Positions 20,960 through 51,218 of a stretch of DNA of 53,553 nt are shown piece after piece. The DNA is taken from assembly GCA_964606645.1 (NCBI GenBank), contig CAZSIZ010000003.1:1-53553 (forward strand), written 5' to 3'. The number at the start of each line of letters is the position of its first letter. Position 1 is the first letter of the stretch. The notes beneath the pieces were generated by a model, which saw nothing but the letters and a program-made list of their open reading frames with translations, had not been told where the DNA came from and did not search any database. The position numbers were made by a program, and so were the translations under genes. This stretch comes from an uncultured bacterium (GTDB lineage: Bacteria > Hinthialibacterota > Hinthialibacteria > Hinthialibacterales > Hinthialibacteraceae).

Positions 20960-21964
20960 TTATTGGCTGGCTGCATCTCGGATCGCGCGATGCGCCTTCG
21001 CCGCTTCGATCAGAAGCGCTTCCAGTTGGGCGTAATAGTCCTTCCCGTCCATTCCGTTTTTCTGTTTTTTCCACGCGCCGATGGTCTCTAAAACCGACAG
21101 ATAATGCTTGATGAGTTCGGGCGGCGTGTCGGGCGAAAACGAATGTTCTTTCAGAAAGCAATTCGCAGCGTTGTGCCCGTCGCTGCCGGGATCAGATTCG
21201 GATTCATTCAAAACAATCGGCAGGCGGGTTCCCCGTCCATCGCCGTTGTCGTCCATTAGAGCGTGTTCCGTCGCGAGGTTTCCCTCACCGGTATACCATG
21301 CGTCAGTCAGTGAAGCGGCCTGTCCGCAGGCTTCGAGAATGGAAATGCGTCCGTCGCGGTTCGTGTCTGCGCTTCCGTCTTCAAGGCCTTGAAGAAGAAA
21401 TTCCATGAATTCGGGCGCGTTCCGCTCGTTCACATTTTTAACCGCCGTGCAGACGATTCGCCCCGGCACGGAAAGGATGTTGATAAATCCCGCGCTGCTG
21501 GAAGACGTGTCGATGACGGCAGTCCGGCGGGCATTCACGCGGGAAACAAGCCGGTTCAATTCGCCGGCGGTCAGGTCCGGTCCGGGAATCTGGAATTTGG
21601 GTTCATTGCGCAGGGAACTGCCGTGTCCGGTCAGAAAAACGAATAGATCATCTACATCTGTCATTTTTGATTCGAGTTCGTTGAATTCGGAACGAATATG
21701 AAAGAGCGACGTCTCTCGATCGGGCGTCTCGATCGATTCAGACCGTTCCGCCATCCAGCAGACATTTTCCTCAGGATGCCCCAACTTAACAGTCAAAACG
21801 TGTTTCAATCGCGCTCCCCATGAAGTAAATTTTTGTTGATAGTCCTCGATGCCCCCACTCCCGCCGATGATGAGAATGGTTGTTTTCGCCCCTCCCGCGT
21901 TGGGAAGCATCGCGAACAGGATAATAAATAACATCAGGATCGATGAGCGAATTGAAATGATCAT
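20960..21964 (-). CDS. Secreted caspase/legumain-like fold protein, catalytic Cys apparently absent
   Basis: ATGA overlap with upstream stop at 21961-21964; signal peptide; FLTGHGS and IDTSSSSAG. Confidence 0.7.
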   Translation of the reverse strand: MIISIRSSILMLFIILFAMLPNAGGAKTTILIIGGSGGIEDYQQKFTSWGARLKHVLTVKLGHPEENVCWMAERSESIETPDRETSLFHIRSEFNELESKMTDVDDLFVFLTGHGSSLRNEPKFQIPGPDLTAGELNRLVSRVNARRTAVIDTSSSSAGFINILSVPGRIVCTAVKNVNERNAPEFMEFLLQGLEDGSADTNRDGRISILEACGQAASLTDAWYTGEGNLATEHALMDDNGDGRGTRLPIVLNESESDPGSDGHNAANCFLKEHSFSPDTPPELIKHYLSVLETIGAWKKQKNGMDGKDYYAQLEALLIEAAKAHRAIRDAASQ

Positions 21965-24399: not shown

Positions 24400-24509
24400 T
24401 TTAGACTGATATTTAACAATACGTTCGTAATGGCGTATGTAAAATCCCGACAAAGCACGGGATTTTACAAGTCGTAACGCATTCAATCCGACGATACTTT
24501 TGAAAACCG

Positions 24510-27500: not shown

Positions 27501-28022
27501 CCAGAACGTGTAACATCCGAGGATGACGGCCAGCGCAATCGCAAAAATTGCGGTGGACGCCAGAAACAATTTGACGATCTGATCCGTATCCAGCAATTCG
27601 GAAAACGAAAATTGACGGGTTAACGATTCCGTCTCTTCGAAGAATTGTTCCAGCATCCACTGCGAGCAAGTGGTGTTCCGGTTTTCCCGGAAATCCATCG
27701 CGCTCACCAATCGGTTGTCCAATTCGGGATGCTTTTCTTCCATGTAAAGCGCGATCTGCTGCAAGGTCACCGACCGTTTCAACGGGCAGTAAACGCAACG
27801 CCACCATGCGACGGATTCCGCAAGAACGAACGAGACGATAAGCCATCCGCGAGACAGACCCAACGCCTGAAAAAGAAACAATAAAAGCGAAAACAGAAAA
27901 ACGAATCCCAGTGTCACCAAGCCGAAACGAACCCAAATCCGCAACGATTGGACACACGAGTACTGATTCGCCACTTGGCGTATTTTGGCGTTTAATTTCG
28001 GTGAGCGGTATTCGCGTGGCAT
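24510..28022 (-). CDS. DUF4175-like membrane protein with Ig-like domains and long Gln-rich coiled coil
   Basis: HPELDNRLVSA, Y.YP.YLG, DDFGI, VP..Y...V..YF..L; start 28022 after AAAGGAG. Confidence 0.82.
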   Translation of the reverse strand: MPREYRSPKLNAKIRQVANQYSCVQSLRIWVRFGLVTLGFVFLFSLLLFLFQALGLSRGWLIVSFVLAESVAWWRCVYCPLKRSVTLQQIALYMEEKHPELDNRLVSAMDFRENRNTTCSQWMLEQFFEETESLTRQFSFSELLDTDQIVKLFLASTAIFAIALAVILGCYTFWMPGSSLFFDSYKGITGLIPSFTVEPGSVRLRRGDNQIVMAKNVADGVSASIRYREGDGAWQTKPMEPSLSSQVYYHSFTNLQNSIQYQVLAGTTRSDSYTLSVWLPPHIEAIDLIYHYPPYLGMDVREVPNGGEITALEGTRIEIAVRSNKKLQKAEIILESGERIALQERSDSLWRGELTVTRNDTYSIHIQDLEGESAEYNPQYSIQVQTDEPPEAKLLFPNRDYEVNLLAEVPFEFQVTDDFGITSYGIQYQAAGEETVRVPLYSGGHAIKEATTNWLLALETLDLEENDLIAWTIWAEDAKPDRDDFEILGDPYFLEVRPFRRFFQEAVSNQGGQQQNNSGQQGGERSDAASQKQILIATWNLRRDSNGMSEDEYEEKRAALEEAQRGLVEKFSTGDAAQGPEASIELPRLLLAMNQAVDALREAVWPEPAGPLSQAAVHEQNAYQSILRMRPRESQVRQQQAGQGSSGNQQEWQDFDQLELSRRRNFYEEERQTQQQLEETGEALNKINELAQRQKTVQDDIAQLISEQKKNSQLQAEEEKRRLERLQEEERKNLNRLDELERDLATGDMRNPQIQQALRDLQNVRQQMNRSLEQMDQNQLQRARTSSARALSALNQAGDRLKQDSRGAAAEKMSALQETMRELMEKQRAIRDRLDDVRKKQESPITSLSDTAEDDKKELRTMKNELSGRLVELLEDAGDLAERSRESQPLTARQLGDWLRQTSQKGIKEDIDQEDRIPLIHYGIWDRAVEHEEGILDKMSQASEDLDRVAETLISNDLEGMRLALSELRETLQSMNPESTDGQGNTGTQTQNDQETNSEANGNAPGNSDERSGERNQENSPGERGQGGAPGDSNDNRPMGGGAGDTPNVRQRMDRGYSNWTDSLRNAESLLPGDYPGRRDVTNVRERLSEFRRAYRDNPNPPKYDLFLDRIARPLAEAVKRIERDLENQASQKEFVLTGEGNVPSNYQDDVANYFQALSDHGADRKQNDG

Positions 28023-28051
28023 GGTGTTCGCTCCTTTCTCTGCGTTTTCGG

Positions 28052-30196
28052 TCAGGCTTCCCGTCTCCGTGAAAGCGACGATGCGTACCAAATTTCAACG
28101 GCAAATAGCAACGTCAACAACCCGATGACGAAGCGGCCGTATTCACGAACGAGTGCCGATTCGGTGTTGGGTGAAAGAGGCTGACGAATCGGCGATTCTC
28201 CCACAGCGGCAAGTGTTGAATGGAATTTCCATCGAAATTCGTCGAGCGGAATTCGCGCTGGATTCGATTCCTCCGTTCGGATGTTGACTGCTTCGATGAA
28301 GGTTCGCTGTGCCGGATCGGCGCTTTGCCACTGGAGAAAACCGGCATGTTCCAAGCGCATCGTATCCGGCTCGAAAGGCGTCAACGCCGTTTCCCCCGGC
28401 CGCTGAATGAGCCAATGGCCGTCGCTTCGACTTGTGATTGCGGGAGGAATCAGTCGGTCCCCGGTTTTTCGTTCCTCGATGATTGTCCCGCTTCCTCCGA
28501 GATAAGCCAGCGTTTCAAAAACGAGTGGGAGAAATTTGGGATTCTTCGGCAGATCGCTCCAATCCAAATTCGGCGTAAACGCCCAGACGATCGCCCTCCC
28601 CTGATGATAGCGAATGTCGAGAATGGCGGGTGCGCCCTCATCCAGGGATTCCTCCTCAAACCGTGCAAGTGTTTTTACATTCAAATTGGGATCATCCGGT
28701 CCATTCGATATCGACTCCAGCCGGATGTAATTGAAAAAACGAATCGTGGAAAAATCATTATACTGCGCACCCTGAAATGGAAGAAAAACCGGATGCTCGA
28801 AATCAATCCAGGACAACAAGTTGAATTGATTTTCTACCCTGGCGGTATATCGGAGATCCCCTGCATGGAATCCCAACGGTTCAAACAAAGCGGTATCGAC
28901 AGAGGGCGTAATCGTCGATTCGTTCAACGCCAGAACGGCGTTCCCTCCCTGACGTATGTAGGAGATTAGGGCCTCTGACAGTGAGGGCGAAAGCGTTTGA
29001 CAGTCACAGAGAATCAGAATATCGGGCGGCCCCTCAGCCGATTGAAGCGTTTGCACTAAATCACCTGAACCGATTCGCCGAACGGTCAACAGACGCTTGG
29101 AGGCCGACTGGATCGCCTGAGTAAGAAACCACGTAGCGGGCCATCGTTCACCAGGCGGCGCATCCGAAACGATAATCACCTGTTTTTTGCGGGGAGAAGT
29201 CCAAGTGAAATAGCGCCGGTTATCAATCTGCAAATCATCGTCATCCAGCTGCAACCACCCTTGAATCGATTGCCCCGTTGTGTGGGGGATTTGAAATGAA
29301 ATCTGCGATGCGTTCCCCGGTTTAACGCTCAGAGTCCGAGCCGCCGTATCCTGCCCATCGATATGAAGCGTAACGTTTCGGGAACGTGTGGAATCCAGCG
29401 ATTCGTTGCGGATTTTCGCCCTCAGCCGAACGACGCCGTTTTTCTCGGAACGGATGTTCGACTCGACAATGGCGTAGTTATCGGTTGCTTCGGTTTCCAC
29501 ATCCACAAGATCGAGTTCAATCCGTGAAGGCAGTTTCCATCCAGTATGCGACGAAGGCATCCCCGCTTGCTGAAAGTCGGAGACAAGATGAATCACTTGT
29601 TGAACGGTTTCGCGCCCGCCTTTGTCATAAGCGGCCAACATCGCCTGCGCTTTCTGTAAAACCGGCAGGTACGCGGTCCCCTCTTCGGTGAGATTCGCGT
29701 TTTGGATGGCTTCACGCGCGCGGCTTTGGCTGCCCGCTTGAGAATCATCAGCACTCCATAGAGGAGCCAGGATCGTTGCTTGCTGCGAAAATCCAATGAC
29801 CCCAACCTTGTCGCCGGATCGAACGTCGTCCAGAATGCGCAACGCCTGGTCCTTCGCGTTCTCAAAACGCCCGGCCGTGCCCATGCTGTACGACGTGTCG
29901 AGAAGAATTAAATGCAGGGCCGATCCTTCGGGGATATCGGGCTGAATGGCCGAAAGCCAGGCGGGGCGCGTGAACGCAAGCGCGATGAGCAGCAAAACCA
30001 GCATTCGAAGCAGCATCAGCAAGATGTGCTGAATGCGCCGCCGCTCGATCACTTCCCGCTTGATGTCCGGCACGAACATCAGGCTGCTGAAATCGACCGG
30101 CTCACGTTCGGGCCGCCGGATTTGATGGAGAATCCAGGGAACGGCAAGCAGGGAAAGGCCGCCAAGAAATAATGGAGCGAGTAAAGAGAATCCCAT
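28052..30196 (-). CDS. BatA (N-terminal double TM) + vWA domain protein
   Basis: P.ILH......FSSLMF, LR.L...LA..RP, MIDAS DTSYS, DN.RYF; TGATG overlap with the DUF58 stop. Confidence 0.88.
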   Translation of the reverse strand: MGFSLLAPLFLGGLSLLAVPWILHQIRRPEREPVDFSSLMFVPDIKREVIERRRIQHILLMLLRMLVLLLIALAFTRPAWLSAIQPDIPEGSALHLILLDTSYSMGTAGRFENAKDQALRILDDVRSGDKVGVIGFSQQATILAPLWSADDSQAGSQSRAREAIQNANLTEEGTAYLPVLQKAQAMLAAYDKGGRETVQQVIHLVSDFQQAGMPSSHTGWKLPSRIELDLVDVETEATDNYAIVESNIRSEKNGVVRLRAKIRNESLDSTRSRNVTLHIDGQDTAARTLSVKPGNASQISFQIPHTTGQSIQGWLQLDDDDLQIDNRRYFTWTSPRKKQVIIVSDAPPGERWPATWFLTQAIQSASKRLLTVRRIGSGDLVQTLQSAEGPPDILILCDCQTLSPSLSEALISYIRQGGNAVLALNESTITPSVDTALFEPLGFHAGDLRYTARVENQFNLLSWIDFEHPVFLPFQGAQYNDFSTIRFFNYIRLESISNGPDDPNLNVKTLARFEEESLDEGAPAILDIRYHQGRAIVWAFTPNLDWSDLPKNPKFLPLVFETLAYLGGSGTIIEERKTGDRLIPPAITSRSDGHWLIQRPGETALTPFEPDTMRLEHAGFLQWQSADPAQRTFIEAVNIRTEESNPARIPLDEFRWKFHSTLAAVGESPIRQPLSPNTESALVREYGRFVIGLLTLLFAVEIWYASSLSRRREA

Positions 30197-31134
30197 CACC
30201 ACCCTCCGTCGGATGGCCGATTACGTTTCGTCCCGGCTGCGCGCAGCATCCGGTTTCGGTGCTGGATAAAGAGATGCAGCGCCCGGTCCAAAGGTTCGTT
30301 CGTCACGAACTCGCCATAGTCGATATCCGCCGTCAGACAGGTTTGACGAATGGCGGAAAAATGGTTGTCGCGGTTTTCCAGATATTGTTTCCGGACCGCG
30401 TCCGGCGTGACGTATTGTTCCCGCGAATCTTCCAAATCCACCAGGGTCACGGTGCGGTCGAACGGAAATGTCTGTTCCGCGATATCGCTGATCTGCATGA
30501 CCAGCACATCCTGTTTTCGGGCGCGCACGAGTTTCAAGCGCTCGGCGATCCCTTCGGCGGGGTGCAGCAGATCGGAAATCAACACGACCAATCCCCGTGG
30601 TTTCAAGAGATCGCCCAGATCGTGCAGCGCTTTGTTTAAGTCCGTTTGTCTCTCCGCCTTCAGATTGGCGAGTTCAACCATGAGTCGTCGAAAGTGGCTG
30701 GGAGTGTTCCGTGGGGGGATATAAACATAGCGGTCCTCGTGGAATCCCAGCAGTCCCACGGCGTCTTTTTGCTGTGCGAGAATCGTTGCCAGGCAGGCGG
30801 TCAGCATCCGGGCATACGTAAATTTCGGCACTTCACCGGATGCGTAATTCATCGACGCGCTGCAATCCAGCAGTAGCAAACACCGCAGATTGGTTTCGTC
30901 TTGAAACTGCTTGACGTGAAGCCGGTCGGTGCGGGCGTAGAGCGGCCAGTCGATAAATCGGGGGTCGTCGCTTTGGGCGTAGGGGCGGTATTGGGCGAAC
31001 TCGACGGACGATCCGAAAAAGGGACTTCGATGCAGCCCGGTCATGAATCCGCGAACCACGGACCGGGCCAACAACTGCAAATCCGCAATACGGATCAGTT
31101 GAGCCGGATCAAGCCCTTGCAACGCATTCTGCAT
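30196..31134 (-). CDS. DUF58 family protein
   Basis: G.H.S...G.S.EF..YRPY...DD.R.IDW, LLDCSASM, LISDL. Confidence 0.92.
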   Translation of the reverse strand: MQNALQGLDPAQLIRIADLQLLARSVVRGFMTGLHRSPFFGSSVEFAQYRPYAQSDDPRFIDWPLYARTDRLHVKQFQDETNLRCLLLLDCSASMNYASGEVPKFTYARMLTACLATILAQQKDAVGLLGFHEDRYVYIPPRNTPSHFRRLMVELANLKAERQTDLNKALHDLGDLLKPRGLVVLISDLLHPAEGIAERLKLVRARKQDVLVMQISDIAEQTFPFDRTVTLVDLEDSREQYVTPDAVRKQYLENRDNHFSAIRQTCLTADIDYGEFVTNEPLDRALHLFIQHRNRMLRAAGTKRNRPSDGGW

Positions 31135-31148
31135 AACTCACCGCCAAG

Positions 31149-31173
31149 CAGTTTTCAGTTTTCAGTTATTAGT
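31149..31173. repeat. Heptamer tandem repeat CAGTTTT/CAGTTAT
   Basis: CAGTTTT CAGTTTT CAGTTAT TAGT visible just upstream of DUF58. Confidence 0.7.
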
Positions 31174-31230
31174 CCCTTATCAGTCAAATTGAACGCAAAA
31201 CGGTCGCAAAATCAATAATCCGCGACTAAT

Positions 31231-31265
31231 CCCCTCTCCCTCTGGGAGAGGGTTAGGGTGAGGGT
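31231..31265. repeat. BoxC-like palindromic intergenic repeat
   Basis: CCCTCTCCC-tct-GGGAGAGGG-TTAGGGTGAGGG matches the widespread CCCTCACCCTAACCCTCTCCC...GGGAGAGGG family. Confidence 0.8.
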
Positions 31266-31353
31266 AAAAATGCAAAAGCGTATCGATTTCACAATAACTT
31301 TTTTAGACCAATAGACCCTAAACTCTGTTTTAACCAATTTTACAGATAAGGCC

Positions 31354-32385
31354 CTAACTCAATCCCGATGTCGGCTGCGGCACGCATTCCAAAAGACGGT
31401 CAATAATATTCTCAACACTGACATGATCCGCCTCGGCGCGGAAATTGATCAGAATGCGATGGCGCAGCACCGGCGCGGCCACAGCACGGATATCGGCGCA
31501 GGAAACGTGATAGCGGCCTTCCAGCAGCGCGCGGGCTTTCGCCGCCAGGATCAGATTTTGAGAGCCGCGAGTCCCCGCTCCCCAGCCGACCCAATTGCGC
31601 ACGAACTCCGGCGGGTCCGGTTCCGACGGGCGGCTGGTTTGAACCAGCTGCACGGCGTACCGGGCGACCGGTTCGGCGATCGGAACCATCCGCACCAGCC
31701 GAGCGAATTCAAGCATATCGCCGCCGGTGAAAACCGGGTTCAACTGAAAGTCCTGGACGGCGGTCGTCTGAGTGACCACCTCCAGTTCGTCGTCTTCACT
31801 CAGATAATCGATGTCGATGTTGAACATGAATCGGTCCAGCTGCGCTTCGGGCAGCGGGTAGGTCCCTTCCAGTTCGATGGGATTTTGGGTGGCGAAGACG
31901 TAAAACGGCTGATCCAATGGTCGAACTTCTCCCGCCACCGTAACCTGCTTCTCTTCCATCGCTTCCAGCAAGGCCGCCTGAGTCTTAGGCGGCGTGCGGT
32001 TGATTTCGTCGGCGAGGAGAATATTTGTGAAAACGGGGCCGGGGATAAAGCGCATTTCCCGGTGTCCCGTGGCGCGGTCTTCGTCGATGATTTCCGTTCC
32101 GATGATGTCGGACGGCATCAAGTCGGGTGTGAACTGGATGCGCTTGAATTTCAGGTCCACGATCTGGGCGATCGACCGGATCAGCCGGGTTTTGGCCAGG
32201 CCGGGCGCACCGGTGATCAACGCGTGGCTGCCGGTGAAGAGAACGATCAGCATCTGCTCGATGACTTCGTCCTGGCCGACGATGGACCGGCGCAATTCTT
32301 CAAGCAGGCGTTCGCGTCCGTCACGCAGTTTATTCAACGCCTCTTCTTCGGATGGAGTTTGCATCGTTTGCGTTTCGTTCTGCAC
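31354..32385 (-). CDS. moxR: MoxR family AAA+ ATPase
   Basis: Walker A GAPGLAKT, RIQFTPDLMPSD, Walker B LADEINR, ATQNPIE.EGTYPLPEAQLDRF. Confidence 0.96.
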   Translation of the reverse strand: MQNETQTMQTPSEEEALNKLRDGRERLLEELRRSIVGQDEVIEQMLIVLFTGSHALITGAPGLAKTRLIRSIAQIVDLKFKRIQFTPDLMPSDIIGTEIIDEDRATGHREMRFIPGPVFTNILLADEINRTPPKTQAALLEAMEEKQVTVAGEVRPLDQPFYVFATQNPIELEGTYPLPEAQLDRFMFNIDIDYLSEDDELEVVTQTTAVQDFQLNPVFTGGDMLEFARLVRMVPIAEPVARYAVQLVQTSRPSEPDPPEFVRNWVGWGAGTRGSQNLILAAKARALLEGRYHVSCADIRAVAAPVLRHRILINFRAEADHVSVENIIDRLLECVPQPTSGLS

Positions 32386-32400
32386 GTCAACCTCGTAGAT

Positions 32401-32487
32401 TAGGGTATAGGATCTAGGGTTTAGGGTCTTTTGTGACCGTTTTGTGATTGATGGTACAAGACCCTAACCCCTAAACCCTAGACCCTG
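32401..32487. repeat. Inverted heptamer array (TAGGGTN)4 - spacer - (NACCCTA)4
   Basis: Left arm 32401-32430, right arm 32458-32487, imperfectly complementary. Confidence 0.85.
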
Positions 32488-32489
32488 CT

Positions 32490-33359
32490 TTAATGCGTCA
32501 TGGCATACACGACGATATTGATTCCTAGAGGGTACGCCTTTTTCTTTGAAAATTCATCGAAATAGATCGGGTTCCGGGCTTCTTCTTCCCAGCCGTCTCC
32601 CAGGTCGGTGTTATGCAGGACCACCGCCATTAACCGCCCTTTTTTATCGAACACGCCTTTGCAACTGGGGATTCGGCTGTCCTCGCCACGTTCGGACGTT
32701 CCCCCGCCCGTCCCGTACCAATATCCTATGCCGGGGATTTGGGGCACTTCTTCGATGTCGAAGACGATGTGAAAGATTTCGTGATCCAGGGGGATATCGA
32801 TCATTGGATATTCGTCCGGCGGGAAGACTTTGCTGAATTCGTATTCCCAGTTCGCCCAGGCTCCCGATCCCCAGAAATCGTCCACCATCAAAAAACCGCC
32901 CCGTAGAAGGTAGTCCCGAAGTTGGGCCGCCTCATCCTCCGAAAAAAACAATCCCCCCACTTCCAGCATATAAGCGAAGGGATAGTGATAGAGGTCTTCG
33001 TCCAGCAGATCGACGCAGACGTGTTTGATCCGTCCGTCCTTGGTGCGGTTGATCTCGATCGTGGTCAGTTCCGACAGGCGTAGAGGGAAATTCAGGTCGG
33101 ATTCCGGGTAGTCGGTCCGCCAGCTCCCCCAGCCCCCGCGCCTTCCACCACCCCCGCCGAATAGGCCCCCCTCCCGCCTGCCCAGGCTTTTGTAGGCCAT
33201 CCGGCAGAAACTAAAAGCGTTGCCGGGGAAGATATCCCGTTCGGGCGCTTGGTAATCGCGGCCTCTTCGCCCCCAGTATTGCGCGGAAGCATCCTGCGGC
33301 AGCATCTCGATTGCTGTCAGGAATAGAATAAAAACGAGCGTTCGAATCAGTCGGTTCAT
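32490..33359 (-). CDS. Secreted DUF4159 family protein
   Basis: W.TDYP..D, YPF.Y, LRDYLLRGGFLMVDDFWG, NTDLGDGWE, GINIV.YAMTH; likely start 33359. Confidence 0.9.
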   Translation of the reverse strand: MNRLIRTLVFILFLTAIEMLPQDASAQYWGRRGRDYQAPERDIFPGNAFSFCRMAYKSLGRREGGLFGGGGGRRGGWGSWRTDYPESDLNFPLRLSELTTIEINRTKDGRIKHVCVDLLDEDLYHYPFAYMLEVGGLFFSEDEAAQLRDYLLRGGFLMVDDFWGSGAWANWEYEFSKVFPPDEYPMIDIPLDHEIFHIVFDIEEVPQIPGIGYWYGTGGGTSERGEDSRIPSCKGVFDKKGRLMAVVLHNTDLGDGWEEEARNPIYFDEFSKKKAYPLGINIVVYAMTH

Positions 33360-33360
33360 A

Positions 33361-36000
33361 TCAATTGAGTTTATCATCCCGTTCGACGATCGTCAGCAGC
33401 AAACGCTGCGCATCCCAGAAATGAGGGAACTCCTCCAGCAGTTGGATCGTATCGGATTTCGCCTCGTTCCATCGTTTCAGTTGAATCAAAATCTCAATGG
33501 CTTGCAGGCGGTGTTCCATCCGGCGGGAGGGATCGAGTTCGGTCAGCTGCCGCACGATGGATAACGCTTCAACGCTTTTATCGCTGTGAAGATAACTTTC
33601 GGCCAAGGTTTTTCTCAGCCCCGTATCGAATGGATCGATCCCCAGCGCCAGATCGGCCACGTTGGCGATCTCTTTCCAATCGCGATCTTCGCTTAACAGT
33701 GTAAGCAACCGGCGGCACTCGGAAAGCGCCGTCGCGTCCCATTCGGTAATCCGTTTCAAAGTCTCAATCACACGATCCCGTTTTCCCCAACGCTCGTACA
33801 CCTGTGCGAGTTGCCGGAGGGGCGCGTCTTCGCCCTGGTAATCGGGGAACAATTCATGAGCGGTCTGGAGCGCATGTTCAGCCTCTTCCCAGCGTTCTTC
33901 GGAAACGTGTTTCATCCCTTCGCGCATCGCGTCGGTGAATGGTGAAGATCGCTCGATCCACCGTTCGTTGGTTTCGGTTTTTTTAAAAATCCGCTCCAGG
34001 AGATTCGACGCGCCATCCGGTTTCGATTGAACCGCCGGAAGGTTTCGATAGGCGGATAGCCGCTCACCCAGGTGTTTTTTGAATGTCTGGTCGATTTTCT
34101 CCACCGATGAGTCGCTGGCCTGTGCCAAGGATTCGTTGGCTTTCTCTCCTTTGCCAATTCGATCCAGCGCTTCCCGCATCGCTTCGATCCCGTAAGTGTC
34201 GATGTAAAACTCGACGAACTCCGCAGCCAGCAGATAGCCCAACATGAGGTGCTGCGGAGTTTTGGGCTGGGTAAAGAAACGTTCCAACTCCGTCAGGCCG
34301 GGCGGCGATTTCAAATCCAGGATGGTTTTATACTGGATGTCCATCGTCTGCCCCCAGGCCGGTAAGCGCTGGGTCTCTTCGTAAACGGAAATGCCCTCGG
34401 AAAGCCAGCGCGGCATGAGGTTGTTCGTTTTTTGCAGCGTGATCGCATGGACGAATTCGTGCCAGAGCACCGACCGCCAGTTCGCGGTCTCCTTGAGTCG
34501 GGCCGAGGGTGAATCCATCGTGACCAGCCGCCCGAAGCAGATTCCGAGAAACCCGGTGTTGCCGGGCAGCCCCAGAGAACGCACCATGAAATCGTCGTGA
34601 TCGTCGAATATTTGAATGTGGACGGGCGTTTTGAGTTGGATATCGTATTTCTCTTGATAGGTCTCGTAGGCTTCCATCAGCAGGTTCAGCGCGTCCTCGG
34701 CGATAACATCCTTTTCGGAGGAAGGCAGGCGCAGCACAAACGGTCCCCGCTCCACTTGGGCAAACGTCTCAAGCGAATCCAGCAGTTTGAGCATGTTGTA
34801 GACATGAACGTTATATGGATCCGCCTTGAACGCCGTTTCCAACAACTGGCGGCCTTCGTCTTCCTCTCCGAGCCGGAGCAGATCGAGCGCCAGCAAGGTT
34901 CGCGCTTCGTTGTCGTCTGGATTGGCAAGCAATGCCCGGCGTTGAAATTCGACCCCTTCTTCAAAACGGTAATTCCTCGACGCGATACGGCCTGGAACCC
35001 GAAAGACGCCGGAAGCGTGGGGATTGAACTGGATCGTGTCCTCCTGAATGCGTTTCATTTCGTCTGAATCACCGTTCAGAAAATACGCCGCCGTTTGCAG
35101 AGAACGCAGGGGGATATAATGGGGATTGACCGTCAGCGCCCGGTTCGTGATCTCCAACGCTTCGTCCATTTCCCCGCTTTCCAGTAAAAGTTCCGCTTGA
35201 ATGGATATTCCCTTGAACGAATTCGGATTGAGTTCGAGGAGTTTCGTCAACGGTTCCTGAACGCGGGGGTCGCTCGCTTTCCAGTAACACTCGGCCAATC
35301 CCGCCAGCGCCTCCTGGTTATTCGGCTTCAAGTTGAGCGCGCTGGTGTAATATTTTTCGGCCAGATCGTACGCTTTATGCCGAAGCGAAAGGCCGCCCGC
35401 TCCACTGTATCCCGGCGCGAACGTAGGAGCCTGTTCCATCAGCACAGTATAAATCGTAGCCAGCAGTTGTTTTGGATTTTCACCCCGTAATTCCGCGATC
35501 CTTGCAATAGCCAATAGATTGTATTCCTGGGTGTGGTAACGCCATCGGTTGTTTTCCAAGACGGCCCGCTCAAGTGTTTCCTTGTAATCATCCAATCGCC
35601 CCCGATCCCGGTAACGCTGAGCGAGGCGCAGCAGAAACGCAGGCTCCGGATTGCTTTCGACGACCCACTCCAAGTCTGTTATGGCATCGTCCACTTCACC
35701 GATAGCGAAACGCAGTTCAGAGCGATCCGATATCCACCGAACGTACCGGTAGATGCGTGAGTTCAGCAGTTCCGGCCTGGATTCCATCAGCTGCTTCTGG
35801 GTTTCGAGCGCCTTGCGGTATTCCCCCCGTTCCCATTCCTCATAGTAGTTTTCAGTGATTGAAGAGATATATCCAACCGGCTGTCCATTCGCGTGACGAA
35901 CGGTCTCCCCGGTCAGAAACAGAAGGATGCCTGCAAAGAGCGTCAATCGGGCCGCTCTCTGTATCGTACTCATCATCAAGTGTTGGGGCCGTCGAATCAA
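33361..36000 (-). CDS. TPR-repeat protein with gluzincin (peptidase MA-like) domain
   Basis: Multiple TPRs; HEFVH...PRWLSEG zinc motif; N-terminal hydrophobic signal (start may be ATG 35976/35973). Confidence 0.88.
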   Translation of the reverse strand: MIRRPQHLMMSTIQRAARLTLFAGILLFLTGETVRHANGQPVGYISSITENYYEEWERGEYRKALETQKQLMESRPELLNSRIYRYVRWISDRSELRFAIGEVDDAITDLEWVVESNPEPAFLLRLAQRYRDRGRLDDYKETLERAVLENNRWRYHTQEYNLLAIARIAELRGENPKQLLATIYTVLMEQAPTFAPGYSGAGGLSLRHKAYDLAEKYYTSALNLKPNNQEALAGLAECYWKASDPRVQEPLTKLLELNPNSFKGISIQAELLLESGEMDEALEITNRALTVNPHYIPLRSLQTAAYFLNGDSDEMKRIQEDTIQFNPHASGVFRVPGRIASRNYRFEEGVEFQRRALLANPDDNEARTLLALDLLRLGEEDEGRQLLETAFKADPYNVHVYNMLKLLDSLETFAQVERGPFVLRLPSSEKDVIAEDALNLLMEAYETYQEKYDIQLKTPVHIQIFDDHDDFMVRSLGLPGNTGFLGICFGRLVTMDSPSARLKETANWRSVLWHEFVHAITLQKTNNLMPRWLSEGISVYEETQRLPAWGQTMDIQYKTILDLKSPPGLTELERFFTQPKTPQHLMLGYLLAAEFVEFYIDTYGIEAMREALDRIGKGEKANESLAQASDSSVEKIDQTFKKHLGERLSAYRNLPAVQSKPDGASNLLERIFKKTETNERWIERSSPFTDAMREGMKHVSEERWEEAEHALQTAHELFPDYQGEDAPLRQLAQVYERWGKRDRVIETLKRITEWDATALSECRRLLTLLSEDRDWKEIANVADLALGIDPFDTGLRKTLAESYLHSDKSVEALSIVRQLTELDPSRRMEHRLQAIEILIQLKRWNEAKSDTIQLLEEFPHFWDAQRLLLTIVERDDKLN

Positions 36001-36201: not shown

Positions 36202-38316
36202 TCAATGGTCGGCCCAATGAAGGACGTCCGTTGAATCAAGTATCAGATCGAAGACATCCAGGCCGAATTTGCTTCTCGACTTGTACAAGCGGTTCCCAGA
36301 AAGCGCCGTCCCCCCGCTAACGCTGCCGCCGCTTGATGGTATCCGGGCACATTCAACGGAATTTCCTTCCGGATCGACTTGATAGAAAACAATGGTGTCC
36401 GAATTCACCAATCCCAACACATTCTGATACCAGAATCCATACCAGGCCTTGGGGAATGGGACGGGCTTGTAGGGAACGGGATTCTTCGGGTCGCGAAAAT
36501 CGACGATGCCCGATCGATCCCATCCGGCGTAACCGAGCATGCCGTCATGAACCGCGAGATCGATGAACGACAGAGAATCTTCTCCTTGATTCACTTCAAC
36601 CTGAGAGAGTAAGAGAGGCTGCTGTGGATTCTCCAATGAATAGAGGAAAAGATAATCATAATATTTAAAGGGAGGGGTGTCTTCCGAGTAGTCTCTCACC
36701 GATTCGGTTTTTGAAAAATATAAATGATCTCCGCTCAGGCATAGGCGAGTGGAATTTTTTTGGATTTCAATTTTTGCTTCAGGCACAGAAGAAATGACCG
36801 AACCGGAACGGGAGAATATCCAAAGATCCGTCCTGGAAACGTCATGCCCTTGATAGGACATTGCCACGATAAACAGATCGCGATTCCACACGATTGGCCC
36901 GAAGAGAGAGAAATTTTCATCATCGGTCGGAAGAAAGGGTAAAACGACAGGCGGTCCGACCAAGCCATTGTCCAAAATTTCGTAAAACGTCCTATCCGTG
37001 TTTGAGAAGATTCCGACCAAAGAATGATGGGCCTCGATGTAAGTGTATCGTTCTTCCGGCAGAACGATTCGATCCACTTCTTTGATATCGGAAGGAACAG
37101 CCCCATCCAGCGTCAGCAAAATGTTTCTACCGTTCTCATCCTTATATTTGGAATAAATGTATTGCCCATTCGCGGCAATCCCGCCAGGTTGGAATGACGT
37201 TTTCGCGGAGACCGCAACCTGCCGGGGATTCTTCGGATCGCGGATATCGTAAGCCCCAACTGAAGATTGGTTGCTGTGAATCAAAAACTCCGGCCCCAAG
37301 GCGAATCTCCATACAGGATAAGAAATCGTTGACGCCTTCTCGTAGGCAGGTCCGATTTTCTGATAGAGGTCAAGCGCATTCTCAGGATCGTCTGGGTTGG
37401 GCAATGCAATCAGCGAATCGAACATCGCCGCAATGGTATTACTCCCGAATCCACAATTGAATTTCTGAATTATTTTCGGTTGGTCCCGCTGGCTCCAATC
37501 CGTCAAAACGGCTTCCATTTTCAAGTGCGAAAAGCCCATCGTAATGAGCAGTAGTTTTGAGGCATTTTTGATACTAAAAAAATAAGGATTTCTAGGGCTG
37601 TCAAGCCAACGATTCTCTGAAAGCACGAGTTCGTTACTGTTTGAAATCCACCCGGAAGTCATAAAGGGCGTGCCTCGTCCATTCGAATAATAGAAATTAC
37701 CATCCATGATTTCTAAGTTATTGATCCGGACATCTTCAGGAATGGGGTATCGGGATGTTTCCCCGGCGATGGGTTGTACGACCAATTCCGAAATGTCCCC
37801 GTCAGCCACCATATAGATCGTCTCTCCCTCCAAGGCCTTCTCCCTCACTTTCCCAATATTCGGGATCGTTCCACGATAGGTCACTTGTTGAGTTTTCGCA
37901 TGATCGATAACGATGTATTCGAGAGCGTCATCACCTTGGTAAAGCAAAACGGTGATATTGTCGTTCGACAGGCCTCCCCGCATAACAAGACTTTCAGATA
38001 AATTCGATTGTCCGTCATCAAGATGAATCGAAAACGCTTCGAGCAATTCGCCCTGGCTGGCCTCAAAATAGCGGATGATTCGCTTTCTCTCCTCCCGCCC
38101 TATCAGTACATAGTATGGCTCCGCATACAGAATATTTTCGACTGCGATCGTATCCGCTTCACCTGAGTAATTTCCTAAATACTCTACAGTCAGCGGTTGG
38201 ATCGAAGCGGCGTCATTGTGAACCAGCGCTGAAAACAGGACCAGAATCGAAACGAAAACCAACCTTGACTTGAGGCACAATGGAAAGCCTGTTACCTGAA
38301 CGAGTGTTGAATTCAT
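36202..38316 (-). CDS. Secreted LVIVD-like beta-propeller repeat protein, C-terminal TDVLHWADH motif
   Basis: Repeats YDIRDPKNPRQV, YSLENPQQPLLL, VDFRDPKNP, GLDVFDL; start 38316 after AGGAG; hydrophobic N-terminus. Confidence 0.78.
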   Translation of the reverse strand: MNSTLVQVTGFPLCLKSRLVFVSILVLFSALVHNDAASIQPLTVEYLGNYSGEADTIAVENILYAEPYYVLIGREERKRIIRYFEASQGELLEAFSIHLDDGQSNLSESLVMRGGLSNDNITVLLYQGDDALEYIVIDHAKTQQVTYRGTIPNIGKVREKALEGETIYMVADGDISELVVQPIAGETSRYPIPEDVRINNLEIMDGNFYYSNGRGTPFMTSGWISNSNELVLSENRWLDSPRNPYFFSIKNASKLLLITMGFSHLKMEAVLTDWSQRDQPKIIQKFNCGFGSNTIAAMFDSLIALPNPDDPENALDLYQKIGPAYEKASTISYPVWRFALGPEFLIHSNQSSVGAYDIRDPKNPRQVAVSAKTSFQPGGIAANGQYIYSKYKDENGRNILLTLDGAVPSDIKEVDRIVLPEERYTYIEAHHSLVGIFSNTDRTFYEILDNGLVGPPVVLPFLPTDDENFSLFGPIVWNRDLFIVAMSYQGHDVSRTDLWIFSRSGSVISSVPEAKIEIQKNSTRLCLSGDHLYFSKTESVRDYSEDTPPFKYYDYLFLYSLENPQQPLLLSQVEVNQGEDSLSFIDLAVHDGMLGYAGWDRSGIVDFRDPKNPVPYKPVPFPKAWYGFWYQNVLGLVNSDTIVFYQVDPEGNSVECARIPSSGGSVSGGTALSGNRLYKSRSKFGLDVFDLILDSTDVLHWADH

Positions 38317-38591
38317 GAGGTTCTCCTGACGTGTTAAGTCGAAATAACCCAGATGAAACGAGAATCTGAAACAATACATTTAGGGGGATTGATAATACTA
38401 TATAACATATTTGATTTTGTCAGATATTTTTACACCTCGCTGGATCGAAAAACTCTAACCGGCTTGATCGACAGAGGTTATAGACCATCATATTTCTATC
38501 CTTGCTTAGTACGCCAATTCATAATCATCCCAAAGAATCAATACTCCATTTAGAATTATCGAAGGTTCCTCAAATTGAACTAAATTTTTAT

Positions 38592-38618
38592 TAAAGAAAA
38601 CATTTCATTGGCCGATAA
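38592..38618 (+). promoter_or_regulatory. Sigma28 (FliA) promoter
   Basis: TAAA(38592-95)-N15-GCCGATAA(38611-18), exact consensus with correct spacing. Confidence 0.8.
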
Positions 38619-38689
38619 AAAGGACGAAAGCCGGAAATGGTGTTTTTGCGATAATCTTTTCATTTTGTTGAGTTGTGGGCGGTATCATA

Positions 38690-39844
38690 ATGCTCTCTCC
38701 CCGTATATTACCCATCCTTCAAGCACAGCAGTCCGAGTTTGGTGCGATCCAGAACGAGAATCGAAACCAGCCAGCGCGTGGTGATCCGGATTCTGCGAAT
38801 ACCCAAAATCAGCGGGAAGCAGTCAATCCAGTCAGAGAAGAGATTCGAGCCACCAGCCGGGACCGTATCACCCTCTCCCAGCAGTCGATCGAGCTGGTTT
38901 CACGGGAAAATCTGGATGCTGACGATTCCATCGAAACAACCACTGACACGCTATCATCGGATCAATTGGAAACCCTATTCAGTCAGTTTCGTCAGTTCAT
39001 ACCGGCATCGGGAAGTGCGGAAATTCCTTCCGCTTTACCCGGCTCCGCCAGTATTCGTTTATCATCAGCGTCGGACCTTCAGGCGTATGTGGAACTGATT
39101 CGTCTCTTTTCCGAAGATAAAGAGACGTTCAATGATTTTCTCGCCCGAATCGACGCCTACCTGAATCGGTCACAACAGGAATCCGCTTCTTCATCCATCG
39201 ATATTTCCACTCAAATCAGTGAACATTACCGCGCCGAAATCGAAGCACGCGTTTCCCAACAGGTTTCCAGCGGTGACGATCGAACCGTTCGGCGTATTCA
39301 AGTCTTAACGACAAATGAAGAAATCATCCAGGCCGAGATGCGGCAAGGCGATCCCCTCGTATTCGATCTGGACGATGACGGGCTGGAAATAACACGCGTC
39401 GAGGAGGGGGTGCTGTTCGATCTTGCGGGCAGCGGCCAGCGCAAGCAAACGGCATTCACTTACGGCGGCGACGCGTTTCTCGCTCTCGACCGGAACGCAA
39501 ATGGCCAAATCGACAGCGGGAAGGAACTCTTCGGCGAACATCATGGAGCCGCCGATGGATTCGATGAACTAAGCAAGTTCGACGAGAACGGCGATGGGCA
39601 GATCGATTCGAAAGACGCGATTTTCGATCGATTGCGGCTCTTTGCCGACGAGAACCGCGATGGAATCTCCCAAGACAACGAATTAGTCACCCTGATCGAA
39701 CAGGGCATCCGCTCGATATCGCTCGAACGAAAAGAGCAGAACCAGAACATCTCCGGCAATCGGTTATCGGCGATCTCTCATTACTCACGCCAAAACGGTT
39801 CGCGAGGCCTGATTGGCGACCTATTCCTCAACTACATCGTCTAA
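38690..39844 (+). CDS. Protein with C-terminal FrpC-like Ca2+-dependent self-processing module (Asp-Pro)
   Basis: GDPLVFDLDDDG, LALDRNANGQIDSGKELFG, FDENGDGQIDSKD, DENRDGISQ..EL..L...GI.SISL; no Sec signal. Confidence 0.8.
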   Translation: MLSPRILPILQAQQSEFGAIQNENRNQPARGDPDSANTQNQREAVNPVREEIRATSRDRITLSQQSIELVSRENLDADDSIETTTDTLSSDQLETLFSQFRQFIPASGSAEIPSALPGSASIRLSSASDLQAYVELIRLFSEDKETFNDFLARIDAYLNRSQQESASSSIDISTQISEHYRAEIEARVSQQVSSGDDRTVRRIQVLTTNEEIIQAEMRQGDPLVFDLDDDGLEITRVEEGVLFDLAGSGQRKQTAFTYGGDAFLALDRNANGQIDSGKELFGEHHGAADGFDELSKFDENGDGQIDSKDAIFDRLRLFADENRDGISQDNELVTLIEQGIRSISLERKEQNQNISGNRLSAISHYSRQNGSRGLIGDLFLNYIV

Positions 39845-39928
39845 TCCCGACCCAGACAATATTATCTTTTTCGATACAGTCTTTCTATCATCCTTTTTTA
39901 TCAGAATGCTGTTCCAGCACTTCGTTTC

Positions 39929-49311: not shown

Positions 49312-50565
49312 ATGTTGATTGAATTTTCGGTAAAAAATTTCCGCTCCATCCGCGAAAAGCAGACCTTGAGCCTGGTAGCGAACAACAAAGATAAGCAGCT
49401 ACCCGGCAACCTGATCGAGATCAACGCCCCTGGATTGTCCAACACCAAACTGCTTAAAAGCTCCGCTATCTATGGCGCAAACGCCTCCGGCAAAAGCAAC
49501 CTCTTCAAAGCCGCCGAGTTTATACAGCAATTTGTTCTCACGTCAGCCACGAAACCGAATCCAGAGGAAAAAACCGGCGTCACTCCTTTCAGACTTGATA
49601 GTCATAGTTCCGATGAACCAAGTGAATTTGAGATGATCTTTATTTACAAAGGTGTTCGGTATCAATATGGGTTTGCGTTGGATAATAAGAGAGTGCATGA
49701 AGAATGGTTGATCACTTATCCCGTTGGGCAGCCTCAGCGCTGGTTCTCCCGTGTTTGGAATTCGGACAAGAAACAATACGATTGGAAAATCGGGAAGAAA
49801 CTTCTTGGCGAAACGAAGAGTTTAAAAACACAAACGAAAAAGAACTCCCTGTTTCTATCCACGGCAGCTCAATTCAATCACAAGCAGTTATGTGTAGTTT
49901 ATGATTGGTTTGCTAATTATATTTTTTCGCTCAGCCATATTGATTCTAACTATCAATTTGATATGACCTCGCCTTTACTATTAAACAGAGAAAAGGAGTT
50001 TAAAGAAATATTCGATTTAATCAAGAACGCTGATTTAGGGATTTCAGGGATTAATGTTGTACGCATGAAATCGGAAGATGTCGAAGATATTGTTGATGCA
50101 ATTATTCAAATGGCAAAAAGTGTAAAACTTGAATTTATACATCTTTTAGAAAATACAGAAGAAGAAATTGCTTTCGATAAGGACGACGAATCATTGGGGA
50201 CACTCAAATATTACTTTTTATTAGGGCCTTTTCTATTAGCATTAAAAATGGGCTATACGGTTTTCATTGATGAAATTGGAGCACAGATGCATCCGCTTCT
50301 GGTGCGGCAGCTTGTCCAGATGATAAACGATCCGAAAATCAACACGAAAGGGGCGCAGTTAATCCTGACAACCCACGATACAACGCTGTTGGATACGTCA
50401 CTTTTCCGGCGGGACCAAATCTGGTTCACCGAAAAGAACAAAGCGGGAGCAACAACGCTCTACCCCCTGACAGATTTCAAACCCCGCTCGGACGAAGCGC
50501 TTCAGAAAGGCTATCTGGCGGGCCGCTACGGCGCGATCCCGTTCCTTGGGGAGTTCCCATTCTGA
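49312..50565 (+). CDS. rloA: RloA-like ABC/AAA_21 ATPase
   Basis: F.V.NF.SI, Walker A GANASGKS, ES.GT, IDE...HP, TTH, RRDQIWF, Y..GRYGAIP. Confidence 0.88.
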   Translation: MLIEFSVKNFRSIREKQTLSLVANNKDKQLPGNLIEINAPGLSNTKLLKSSAIYGANASGKSNLFKAAEFIQQFVLTSATKPNPEEKTGVTPFRLDSHSSDEPSEFEMIFIYKGVRYQYGFALDNKRVHEEWLITYPVGQPQRWFSRVWNSDKKQYDWKIGKKLLGETKSLKTQTKKNSLFLSTAAQFNHKQLCVVYDWFANYIFSLSHIDSNYQFDMTSPLLLNREKEFKEIFDLIKNADLGISGINVVRMKSEDVEDIVDAIIQMAKSVKLEFIHLLENTEEEIAFDKDDESLGTLKYYFLLGPFLLALKMGYTVFIDEIGAQMHPLLVRQLVQMINDPKINTKGAQLILTTHDTTLLDTSLFRRDQIWFTEKNKAGATTLYPLTDFKPRSDEALQKGYLAGRYGAIPFLGEFPF

Positions 50566-51218
50566 TGCCTCACCGATCCTCCCGATCCATTCGACGCGAA
50601 CGATCCCTTCGGCGTAAAACACTGAAGCAGCAACGATCCGGCGATATCATTCTGATCGTCTGTGAAGGAGAAAAAACCGAGCCGGAGTACTTAAAAGGCT
50701 TGGTTCGCCATTGGAAATTGAATCCCGTCAACGTTGAGATTACCGGGAAGGAATGCGGCAGCGCACCGATCAGCGTGGTCGATTATGCCTTAAAACGAAG
50801 AAAGGAAATCGAGAAGCGGGAAAAAATCAAGTACGACGAGGTCTGGTGCGTCATTAACCATGAGGGAATTAACAAGCATGAAAGTTTGGACCGGGTGATC
50901 AAAAAAGCCAAGGATAATCACTTGAAAGTCGCGCTCTCCGTTCCCTGTTTCGAGTTCTGGTATCTGCTGCACTTTGAATGTACCACCAGGATGTATTCGG
51001 ATTGTAAGGAATTGACCTCACGACTAAGAAATCACATTCCCGAATACTATAAAAAAGGGCCATTCGATCGATTGGTAATCAAACTGGATGAGGCATTCGT
51101 GAATGCGGAAAGGATGCGACACTATCACAAGACATCCGGCACCAATAATCCATCCTCCGATGCCGACCTGTTGATCCAAAAACTGAAGTCGATGGTGTTA
51201 CCCCATCACTTAACGTAA
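50565..51218 (+). CDS. rloB: RloB family protein
   Basis: IVCEG.KTE..Y, S.PCFEFW.LLHF, NPSS; TGATG coupling to rloA. Confidence 0.88.
   Translation: MPHRSSRSIRRERSLRRKTLKQQRSGDIILIVCEGEKTEPEYLKGLVRHWKLNPVNVEITGKECGSAPISVVDYALKRRKEIEKREKIKYDEVWCVINHEGINKHESLDRVIKKAKDNHLKVALSVPCFEFWYLLHFECTTRMYSDCKELTSRLRNHIPEYYKKGPFDRLVIKLDEAFVNAERMRHYHKTSGTNNPSSDADLLIQKLKSMVLPHHLT

Follow-up and report, generated by a model that had tools for sequence, protein, structure and literature searches.

What would connect a calcium-triggered, self-cleaving protein module with the flagellar sigma factor of a bacterium, and how would such a protein leave the cell? The question is raised by a gene on a 53,553 nt contig of an uncultured bacterium of the order Hinthialibacterales (assembly GCA_964606645.1, contig CAZSIZ010000003.1; the whole stretch is referred to here as the window). 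The gene lies at 38690..39844 on the forward strand and encodes a protein of 384 amino acids (aa), which ends in a relative of FrpC's self-processing module (SPM). The intergenic stretch upstream of it (38380-38689) contains a site with the layout of a sigma28-type promoter: TAAA at 38592-38595 and GCCGATAA at 38611-38618, separated by a spacer of 15 nt (38596-38610). Taken together, the sequence evidence suggests that these bacteria may use the flagellum to export a protein that is self-activating and possibly self-gluing. We put at about one half the probability that this is a late FliA-dependent gene whose leaderless, two-part product is exported by the flagellum and cleaved in the presence of calcium, the resulting anhydride being either linked or hydrolysed.

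The coding sequence, including its stop codon at 39842-39844, was taken from the list of open reading frames (ORFs) and is backed by 116 database homologues. An in-frame GTG is present further upstream at 38675; the ATG at 38690 was preferred as the start because it fits the N-termini of the orthologues. The translation contains no GGxGxD nonapeptide of the repeats-in-toxin (RTX) type, and a Pfam scan of the 21 neighbouring ORFs of the window detected no flagellar or type I secretion genes. The lack of RTX nonapeptides and of nearby type I secretion genes had been noted in the first-pass annotation of this DNA, together with the promoter, a DRITLSQQS motif (residues 58-66, 38861-38887), an Asp-Pro pair and a 163-aa tail, and direct reading located all four elements exactly where that annotation had placed them.

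The C-terminal self-processing module

The proposal that the protein carries an FrpC-type module at its C-terminus was borne out by comparison with known structures. A phmmer search of the PDB aligned residues 222-380 with positions 1-168 of chain 6sjw_A (E 1.9e-28) and also matched 6sjx_A (E 4.8e-28); both chains were covered whole, with D221-P222 in register with D414-P415 of FrpC. An AlphaFold2 model built from 68 sequences reached a block-mean predicted local distance difference test score (pLDDT) of 94-98 over the module, and a Foldseek search with this model returned 6sjw (E 1.1e-15, template modelling (TM) score on the target 0.76, 43% identity) and 6sjx (TM score 0.76), the two FrpC structures being the only matches at E≤0.001. 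The precomputed Pfam family PF26745, for which the Atlas gives the name 'SPM', was present on all 116 database homologues. By homology, residues 221-384 thus constitute a clear relative of the FrpC SPM. The putative scissile pair Asp221-Pro222 is encoded at 39350..39355 (+) and the module itself (residues 222-384) at 39353..39841 (+); the 163 residues that follow Asp221 start with PLVFDLDDDG and end the protein.

To assess the calcium ligands, the FrpC residues named in Kuban et al. 2020 (PMC7078468) were transferred through the phmmer alignment. FrpC residues D419/D421/D423 correspond to D226/D228/D230, D462/N464 to D267/N269, D499/N501/D503 to D298/N300/D302, D521/N523/D525 to D320/N322/D324, and D579 to D377, which makes 11 listed ligands of the four EF-hand-like calcium sites, and D579, identical. 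By our count the listed ligand N468 falls on an isoleucine, and N466 aligns with N271. The narrow-port residues L475 and G477 are retained. Among the 19 orthologues described below, the proline of the scissile pair is invariant and the aspartate is present in 17, with glutamate in the other two. On this basis the module looks cleavage-competent, with caveats that are weighed below together with the rest of the evidence.

The chemistry to be expected of such a module is known from FrpC. The apo-SPM is unstructured and is folded by calcium (PMC7078468); cleavage is lost with D414A, the anhydride can be coupled to lysines, undergo cyclisation or be hydrolysed, and at 2 mM calcium the reaction proceeds efficiently (PMC7846742). 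Every member of a diverse set of SPM homologues was found to cleave, and cleavage takes minutes or longer (PMC12538545). Our protein shares with FrpC homology over the whole module, the Asp-Pro pair at the N-terminal border of the module and, as far as the transferred ligands indicate, the four EF-hand-like calcium sites, and because of this homology, disorder without calcium and an aspartic anhydride upon cleavage would be expected here as well. The two proteins differ in architecture and in control. The module of FrpC lies inside a large RTX protein, whereas ours occupies the extreme C-terminus of a 384-aa chain that has no RTX repeats, type I signal or adjoining type I genes, and FrpC is iron-regulated, in contrast to the sigma28-type promoter found here.

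The sigma28-type promoter and the FliA regulon

The candidate promoter consists of a -35 element TAAAG (38592..38596, +) and the -10 element GCCGATAA (38611..38618, +), 15 nt 3' of the TAAA. From this geometry, transcription would be expected to start a few bases past the -10 element, in a putative 5' untranslated leader at 38619..38689 (+). The window is contig C3 of a 541-contig, 6.43-Mb genome, and the exact 12-base pattern (TAAA-N15-GCCGATAA) occurs twice on the two strands of that genome, where simple arithmetic predicts approximately 0.8 occurrences. The exact match alone is within chance, and the significance of the promoter derives instead from its conservation across orthologues.

The order comprises 26 species genomes, 19 of which, including the genome of the window, encode one orthologue each. 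A T[AC]AAG-N14-16-G[ACT]CGAT.. site is located about 30-145 nt 5' of the start in 18 of these 19 orthologues; in the remaining one, L028, the sole candidate is a doubtful TGAAG site that overlaps the start. The genome-wide background was 0.005 per 470 nt for the strict pattern and 0.11 per 470 nt for a relaxed pattern. Control scans used a slightly wider TNAAG form (background 0.0065 per 300 nt), which detected a site at none of 45 neighbour genes and none of 25 fliA genes, and at all 25 flgM genes, the flgM ORFs having been located by tblastn. Gene neighbours differed in all 12 orthologous loci compared, leaving the site as the sole conserved cis feature, and none of the 45 neighbour proteins around the orthologues was flagellar or secretion-related. 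The site has been kept even though the proteins encoded next to it are just 33-48% identical, which argues for selection on it. Although related genomes are non-independent samples, the comparison of 18/19 orthologues with 0/45 neighbour genes speaks for the prediction of the first-pass annotation that the promoter would be conserved upstream of homologues, and we regard sigma28 (FliA) control of the gene as well supported by sequence, not demonstrated.

The genome also contains the machinery that such a promoter presupposes, as the same annotation had anticipated: FliA (243.9 bits, cut-off 189.6), FlhA (804.5 bits, cut-off 772.1), a canonical 102-aa FlgM and an 881-aa flagellin were all identified. 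FliA is present in all 26 genomes of the order and canonical FlgM in 25. For the candidate phylum Hinthialibacterota, a metagenome-assembled genome (MAG) has led to the inference of flagella and Tad pili (PMC9324843), and database relatives of our protein bear the names Candidatus Hinthialibacter antarcticus and Hinthialibacteria bacterium OLB16. Strict sigma28 sites that are intergenic and have a downstream gene number about 10 in the genome; these precede flagellin (twice), the SPM gene, a gene for a DUF5610 protein and a few further genes. This flagellin is exceptionally long, with Flagellin_N and Flagellin_C separated by approximately 620 aa (C26, L010:2488-5133, -), and its two tandem sigma28-type sites lie 121 and 209 nt 5' of the listed ORF start. 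T[AC]AAG is shared by the SPM gene with both flagellin and flgM. A sigma28-like site before fliA itself (C81) was rejected as a promoter, being 5 nt from the start and therefore too close; no fliA orthologue has a site.

A second feature links the SPM protein with FlgM. The first-pass annotation had stated that a D-x-[VI]-x-[LI]-S motif occurs in FlgM-like export substrates, and in this lineage the motif was indeed shared with FlgM (23 of 25 FlgM ORFs). The stricter DR[IV]x[LI]S, required within residues 21-110, was found in 10 of 4904 crudely called genes, and four of the 10 are located behind sigma28-like sites: those for the SPM protein, FlgM, the DUF5610 protein and a 493-aa orphan. A loose form of the motif is present in 12 of the 19 SPM orthologues, compared with 6.2% of the crude proteome. 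These counts support DR[IV]x[LI]S as a putative mark of FlgM-like flagellar cargo in the lineage.

The other two non-FlgM members of this group are themselves conserved within the order. The DUF5610 protein (224 aa, Pfam E 2.4e-22; C111:2284-2955 (+), identical to L177:2284-2955) is encoded behind TCAAG-N14-GCCGATAA, and its start reads M..IDPINSIP...DRISLS. All 26 genomes of the order gave a match; of the 27 loci, 26 have a sigma28-like site and 17 the loose motif. DUF5610 may be a flagellar-regulon family, judging from these loci; no mention of it was found in the literature searched. The 493-aa orphan (C4:13803-15281 (-), L180:2801-4282), for which no above-threshold Pfam family was detected, contains DRVELS near residue 100 and is preceded by a TTAAG-N15-GCCGATAC site 68 nt upstream. 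It was matched in 22/26 genomes, with a sigma28-like site at 20/21 loci and the loose motif at 16/21; 27 loci were returned, and the six beyond the 21 analysed are second pieces. Its orthologue in genome G019 contains an in-frame TAG. A further candidate, a 205-aa protein without a Pfam family (C2, L009:1830-2447, -), lies behind TAAAG-N14-GCCGATAT and is followed by an SLT lytic transglycosylase gene (L009:477-1334); from this arrangement, the pair may form another flagellar-regulon unit, perhaps with an FlgJ-like role.

Proposed export of the payload and the competing explanations

The N-terminal half of the SPM protein, referred to here as the payload, bears on how the chain might leave the cell. 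Reading of the translation and of the orthologue N-termini revealed neither a hydrophobic signal peptide nor a twin-arginine motif. The approximately 220 N-terminal residues are predicted to be mostly disordered: the AlphaFold2 model had pLDDT <50 at residues 1-46, 48-78, 108-127 and 172-211, with moderate-confidence helices at 64-103 and at 127-164, the latter comprising 127-141 and 144-164 (pLDDT 64-76). Residues 1-66 (38690..38887, +) form a leaderless, polar N-terminus that ends with DRITLSQQS, a FlgM-like layout in terms of pLDDT and motif counts. Across the 19 aligned orthologues, the conserved elements are M..P-I at the start, a polar linker, D-x-[VIL]-x-[LI]-[ST] (12/19) and one helical pair. 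This pair (residues 127-164; 39068..39181, +), with the pattern YLxLIRxLSKDxE..FLxxIE in the orthologue alignments, is the best-conserved part of the payload, and Y133, I137 and D143 vary little or not at all.

A profile of the N-terminal half, searched against 1.84 billion representative proteins, gave 31 matches at E≤0.001, which were 322-463 aa long apart from one 68-aa piece. Both SPM patterns were fitted by 26 of these, three more were assigned by the site pattern or by alignment, and two were undecided. As far as these matches indicate, the payload is lineage-restricted and found only in fusion with the SPM. Foldseek revealed no look-alike of the payload, returning SPM matches only, and the best payload score in the Atlas, 0.81, was at chance level. 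Three more specific ideas were rejected. The payload is not recognizable as a FlgM homologue, since Pfam FlgM was detected in 0/20 members at E≤10 and an hhalign comparison with 13 FlgM sequences from the order gave E 0.14, its pairing being confined to 20 columns, that is, the motif alone. Homology with the DUF5610 protein of the sigma28 regulon was likewise not supported (hhalign E 0.11, on an unrelated stretch). Lysine depletion was considered as the mark of a cross-linker; with one lysine in 221 residues it is extreme here, but it is not conserved, the pooled payloads having 2.2% as against 2.9% in the SPM.

The traits typical of flagellar export are all present, namely the absence of a Sec or Tat signal, a predicted-disordered N-terminus and a late-flagellar-type promoter; these are permissive rather than diagnostic. 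We inferred the steps of export, cleavage and linking from the biochemistry of FrpC, the lack of a Sec, Tat or type I signal and the FlgM-like N-terminus. In the proposed sequence of events, FliA would transcribe the gene together with flagellin and flgM. The low-calcium cytoplasm would keep the whole chain unfolded, the apo-SPM being intrinsically disordered, and the chain would exit through the flagellar type III export channel, as FlgM does. Outside, calcium would fold the SPM, the fold would put strain on Asp221-Pro222, and this bond would be attacked by the Asp side chain. Cleavage would free an 18-kDa SPM and leave the 24-kDa payload with a C-terminal aspartic anhydride, which might then acylate a nearby amine (a lysine of a bound partner, be it the filament, the cell surface, a particle or another cell) or be hydrolysed.

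One of the closest parallels is FlgM (PF04316), the flagellum-exported anti-sigma28 factor, which has in common with our protein a sigma28-dependent promoter, the lack of a signal peptide, a disordered, polar N-terminus and D-R-[IV]-x-[LI]-S at a similar distance from the start. In contrast to FlgM, our protein is four times longer and carries an SPM; there is no significant similarity beyond the motif, and the canonical FlgM is encoded elsewhere. The protein also resembles non-structural proteins of Campylobacter jejuni that are co-expressed with flagella or secreted through them (the Feds, the Cia proteins and the Cj0814 family), leaderless proteins whose sigma28-regulon genes are scattered outside the flagellar clusters. 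We know of no self-cleaving or cross-linking module in these C. jejuni proteins. Membership of the sigma28 regulon is described for the Feds, and secretion by flagella for the Cia proteins (PMC6196472); in the Atlas, the Cj0814-family cluster scored 0.76, which is chance level and at most a lead rather than a sign of homology.

Several observations weigh against the flagellar route and the self-processing of its cargo. A sigma28 promoter is, in our analysis, by itself no proof of flagellar export: the Vibrio cholerae RTX adhesin FrhA is under the flagellar hierarchy and yet belongs to the type I-secreted RTX family (PMC3034196). Transcription, export and cleavage are all inferred. In the module, D478 of FrpC, which like D579 belongs to a transient fifth calcium site, is replaced by Glu283, and D478A lowers processing in FrpC (PMC7078468); moreover, the Trp451/Trp519 pair is replaced by Phe256/Phe318, and a 6-residue loop that holds the port residue G491 is deleted. 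The two closest orthologues (L016/G008 and L017/G010) have Glu-Pro in place of Asp-Pro and lack the DxVxLS motif. The scarcity of lysine in the payload, as would be expected of a cross-linker, is not kept in orthologues. With this protein as the query, no match was found in 7 of the 26 genomes, four of which are 94-98% complete, and the protein is evidently dispensable for flagella since all 26 have FliA. Finally, about half of the terminal-SPM genes of other phyla, introduced below, had no sigma28 site in the scan. The Glu-Pro orthologues have kept the sigma28 site and everything else, and could represent either inactive variants or a natural test of whether Glu can serve in the reaction.

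Among the alternatives, one retains export and cleavage and dispenses with the cross-link. The SPM would be a self-removing C-terminal tag, the folding of which outside the cell helps to pull the chain or stops it from sliding back, and the free payload would act non-covalently once the anhydride is hydrolysed. Hydrolysis and self-cyclisation are indeed the fates observed for SPM anhydrides without a close partner (PMC7846742), and a cleavage that takes minutes or longer (PMC12538545) would let a secreted protein diffuse away. The absence of a conserved partner gene in the 12 orthologous loci and the unconserved lysine depletion point the same way. Conversely, the conserved helical pair of the payload could hold a partner, and the anhydride-forming Asp-Pro is kept in 17/19 orthologues. 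We regard this clipping-only role as rather unlikely.

A calcium-activated adhesin or effector that is timed with flagella and exported by a type I-like ATP-binding cassette (ABC) transporter, or by some other route, seems to us unlikely. All of the characterized SPM proteins are type I substrates, the genome encodes three full-length ABC exporters of 618-660 aa, and RTX adhesins controlled by the flagellar hierarchy provide a precedent. FrhA resembles our protein in being a calcium-binding, secreted adhesin expressed under that hierarchy (PMC3034196), but it is a large RTX/cadherin protein, and ours lacks both RTX repeats and a C-terminal signal. The chain ends with the last SPM strand, which leaves no room for a C-terminal type I signal. 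In addition, no PrtD-type type I ABC exporter scored above the cut-off in the genome (best 234.7 versus 510 bits), no secretion genes adjoin the gene in the window or in the 12 orthologous loci, and the N-terminus resembles those of FlgM and two other sigma28-regulon proteins.

A third explanation would keep the protein in the cytoplasm, as a FlgM-like regulator (a second anti-sigma28 factor, or a protein bound to FliA) whose action is ended by calcium-triggered self-cleavage. In its favour, D-R-[IV]-x-[LI]-S opens the Pfam FlgM domain region of FlgM in this lineage and accounts for all that hhalign could pair, the layout is FlgM-like, and the gene appears to belong to the FliA regulon, as flgM does. 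We consider a cytoplasmic role improbable, given that a canonical FlgM is already encoded in 25/26 genomes and that neither hhalign nor the Pfam search detected significant FlgM similarity. Millimolar calcium far exceeds cytoplasmic levels. FrpC-type SPMs need calcium at roughly this concentration (PMC7846742). Lastly, that the promoter match is fortuitous and the gene encodes an ordinary calcium-binding protein unrelated to flagella is hardly credible: the near-chance genome count and the lack of flagellar genes nearby would allow it, but the recurrence of the site in front of orthologues with unrelated neighbours and in other phyla, and the outcome of the negative and positive controls, refute it as far as sequence allows.

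SPM proteins in other phyla and further genes of the window

The preferred reading, flagellar export followed by calcium-dependent cleavage, gains a wider context from a census of SPM relatives in one genome per species. At least 618 stretches were matched, of which 561 encode an SPM relative; the counts that follow are for the best 80, a sample biased towards relatives of our protein. The SPM is located at the very end of the protein, with no RTX repeats, in 39 of these 80 (40 if L094, which reaches a contig end, is included), and the other 41 proteins are longer, many having 5-17 GGxGxD repeats. A strict sigma28 site was detected 5' of 17 of the 39 terminal-SPM genes (18/40 with L094; 22 with relaxed forms), as against two of the 41 others, namely L094 itself and one locus whose sites are >850 nt away. 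The terminal-SPM genes with a site were mostly from MAGs labelled Hydrogenedentota, with single cases from Planctomycetota, Sumerlaeota and Nitrospiraceae and several without a phylum label.

The payloads of these proteins are not recognizably related to ours; a hidden Markov model of the order's N-terminal half matched nothing among the terminal-SPM proteins of other phyla except for two weak matches at E 1e-5. A FastTree phylogeny of 79 SPM domains separated terminal from long or RTX forms with a single label change, with weak basal support and on a query-biased sample. From these sequences, terminal SPM proteins look like a distinct and widespread subfamily with varied payloads, many of them encoded behind sigma28-type promoters. 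The original description of the protein as an unusual non-RTX use of the module therefore holds as regards the lack of RTX repeats, although the use is less singular than supposed. Terminal-SPM proteins of 367-378 aa with a payload of their own are also encoded by the cultured genus Thalassospira (L103, L105, L114, L115 and L121). No sigma28-type site was found in the scan upstream of the Thalassospira genes, and these organisms might be used as models in which RTX-free SPM proteins can be studied in culture.

In the literature that we found, the clip-and-link chemistry of the SPM is described only within large RTX proteins that pathogens secrete by the type I route, and what it does there naturally has yet to be settled; the module is the basis of the NeissLock protein-ligation technology. 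An RTX review (PMC3034196) mentions flagella only in connection with FrhA and in a reference, and neither terminal SPM proteins without RTX repeats nor a control of such proteins by sigma28 were found described in the open-access literature searched. An RTX-free, sigma28-controlled subfamily in at least four labelled phyla would widen SPM biology to environmental, non-pathogenic bacteria and would point to flagellar export as a second route for the module. Its small natural 'binder-SPM' proteins (about 220 + 163 aa) would represent test cases for the purpose of the anhydride. A further product of the work is a definition of the FliA regulon in a candidate phylum without a cultured member, and, because this regulon holds three conserved orphans with a FlgM-like N-terminal motif, a marker of late flagellar export becomes testable in a new lineage. 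We speculate that the flagellum has a second use, in several phyla with few cultured members, as a device that delivers 'self-arming' cargo: leaderless proteins made along with late flagellar genes would pass through the channel unfolded, fold their terminal SPM once they encounter calcium outside, and by the resulting anhydride be fixed covalently to the filament, to the surface of the cell itself or to whatever it has touched while swimming. In this order the DRIxLS shared with FlgM and the two other sigma28-regulon orphans would be a common recognition element, either through sigma28 acting as a chaperone or as an export-gate signal for non-structural late cargo; this extension is tentative, and we think of it as possible rather than probable.

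The surroundings of the SPM gene are varied. Downstream of it, a candidate intrinsic terminator was rejected, as only a weak 5-pair stem is present (39907-39919) and the count was at the level of shuffled sequence. A 725-aa ORF divergent from the SPM gene (36202-38379, -) has no Pfam match even at E 0.1 and is not conserved beside the orthologues. Further upstream, a row of BatA/VWA, DUF58, MoxR AAA+ and DUF4159 genes (28052-33377, -) is of the aerotolerance-operon type, and upstream of this row are very large ORFs (24510-28091 and 21961-24486) with DUF4175 and GATase1-like matches. At 49312-51218 (+), an AAA_21 gene (AbiEii-like ATPase, E 1e-40) is followed directly by an RloB-like gene (E 1.4e-40), a pairing typical of candidate anti-phage defence modules.

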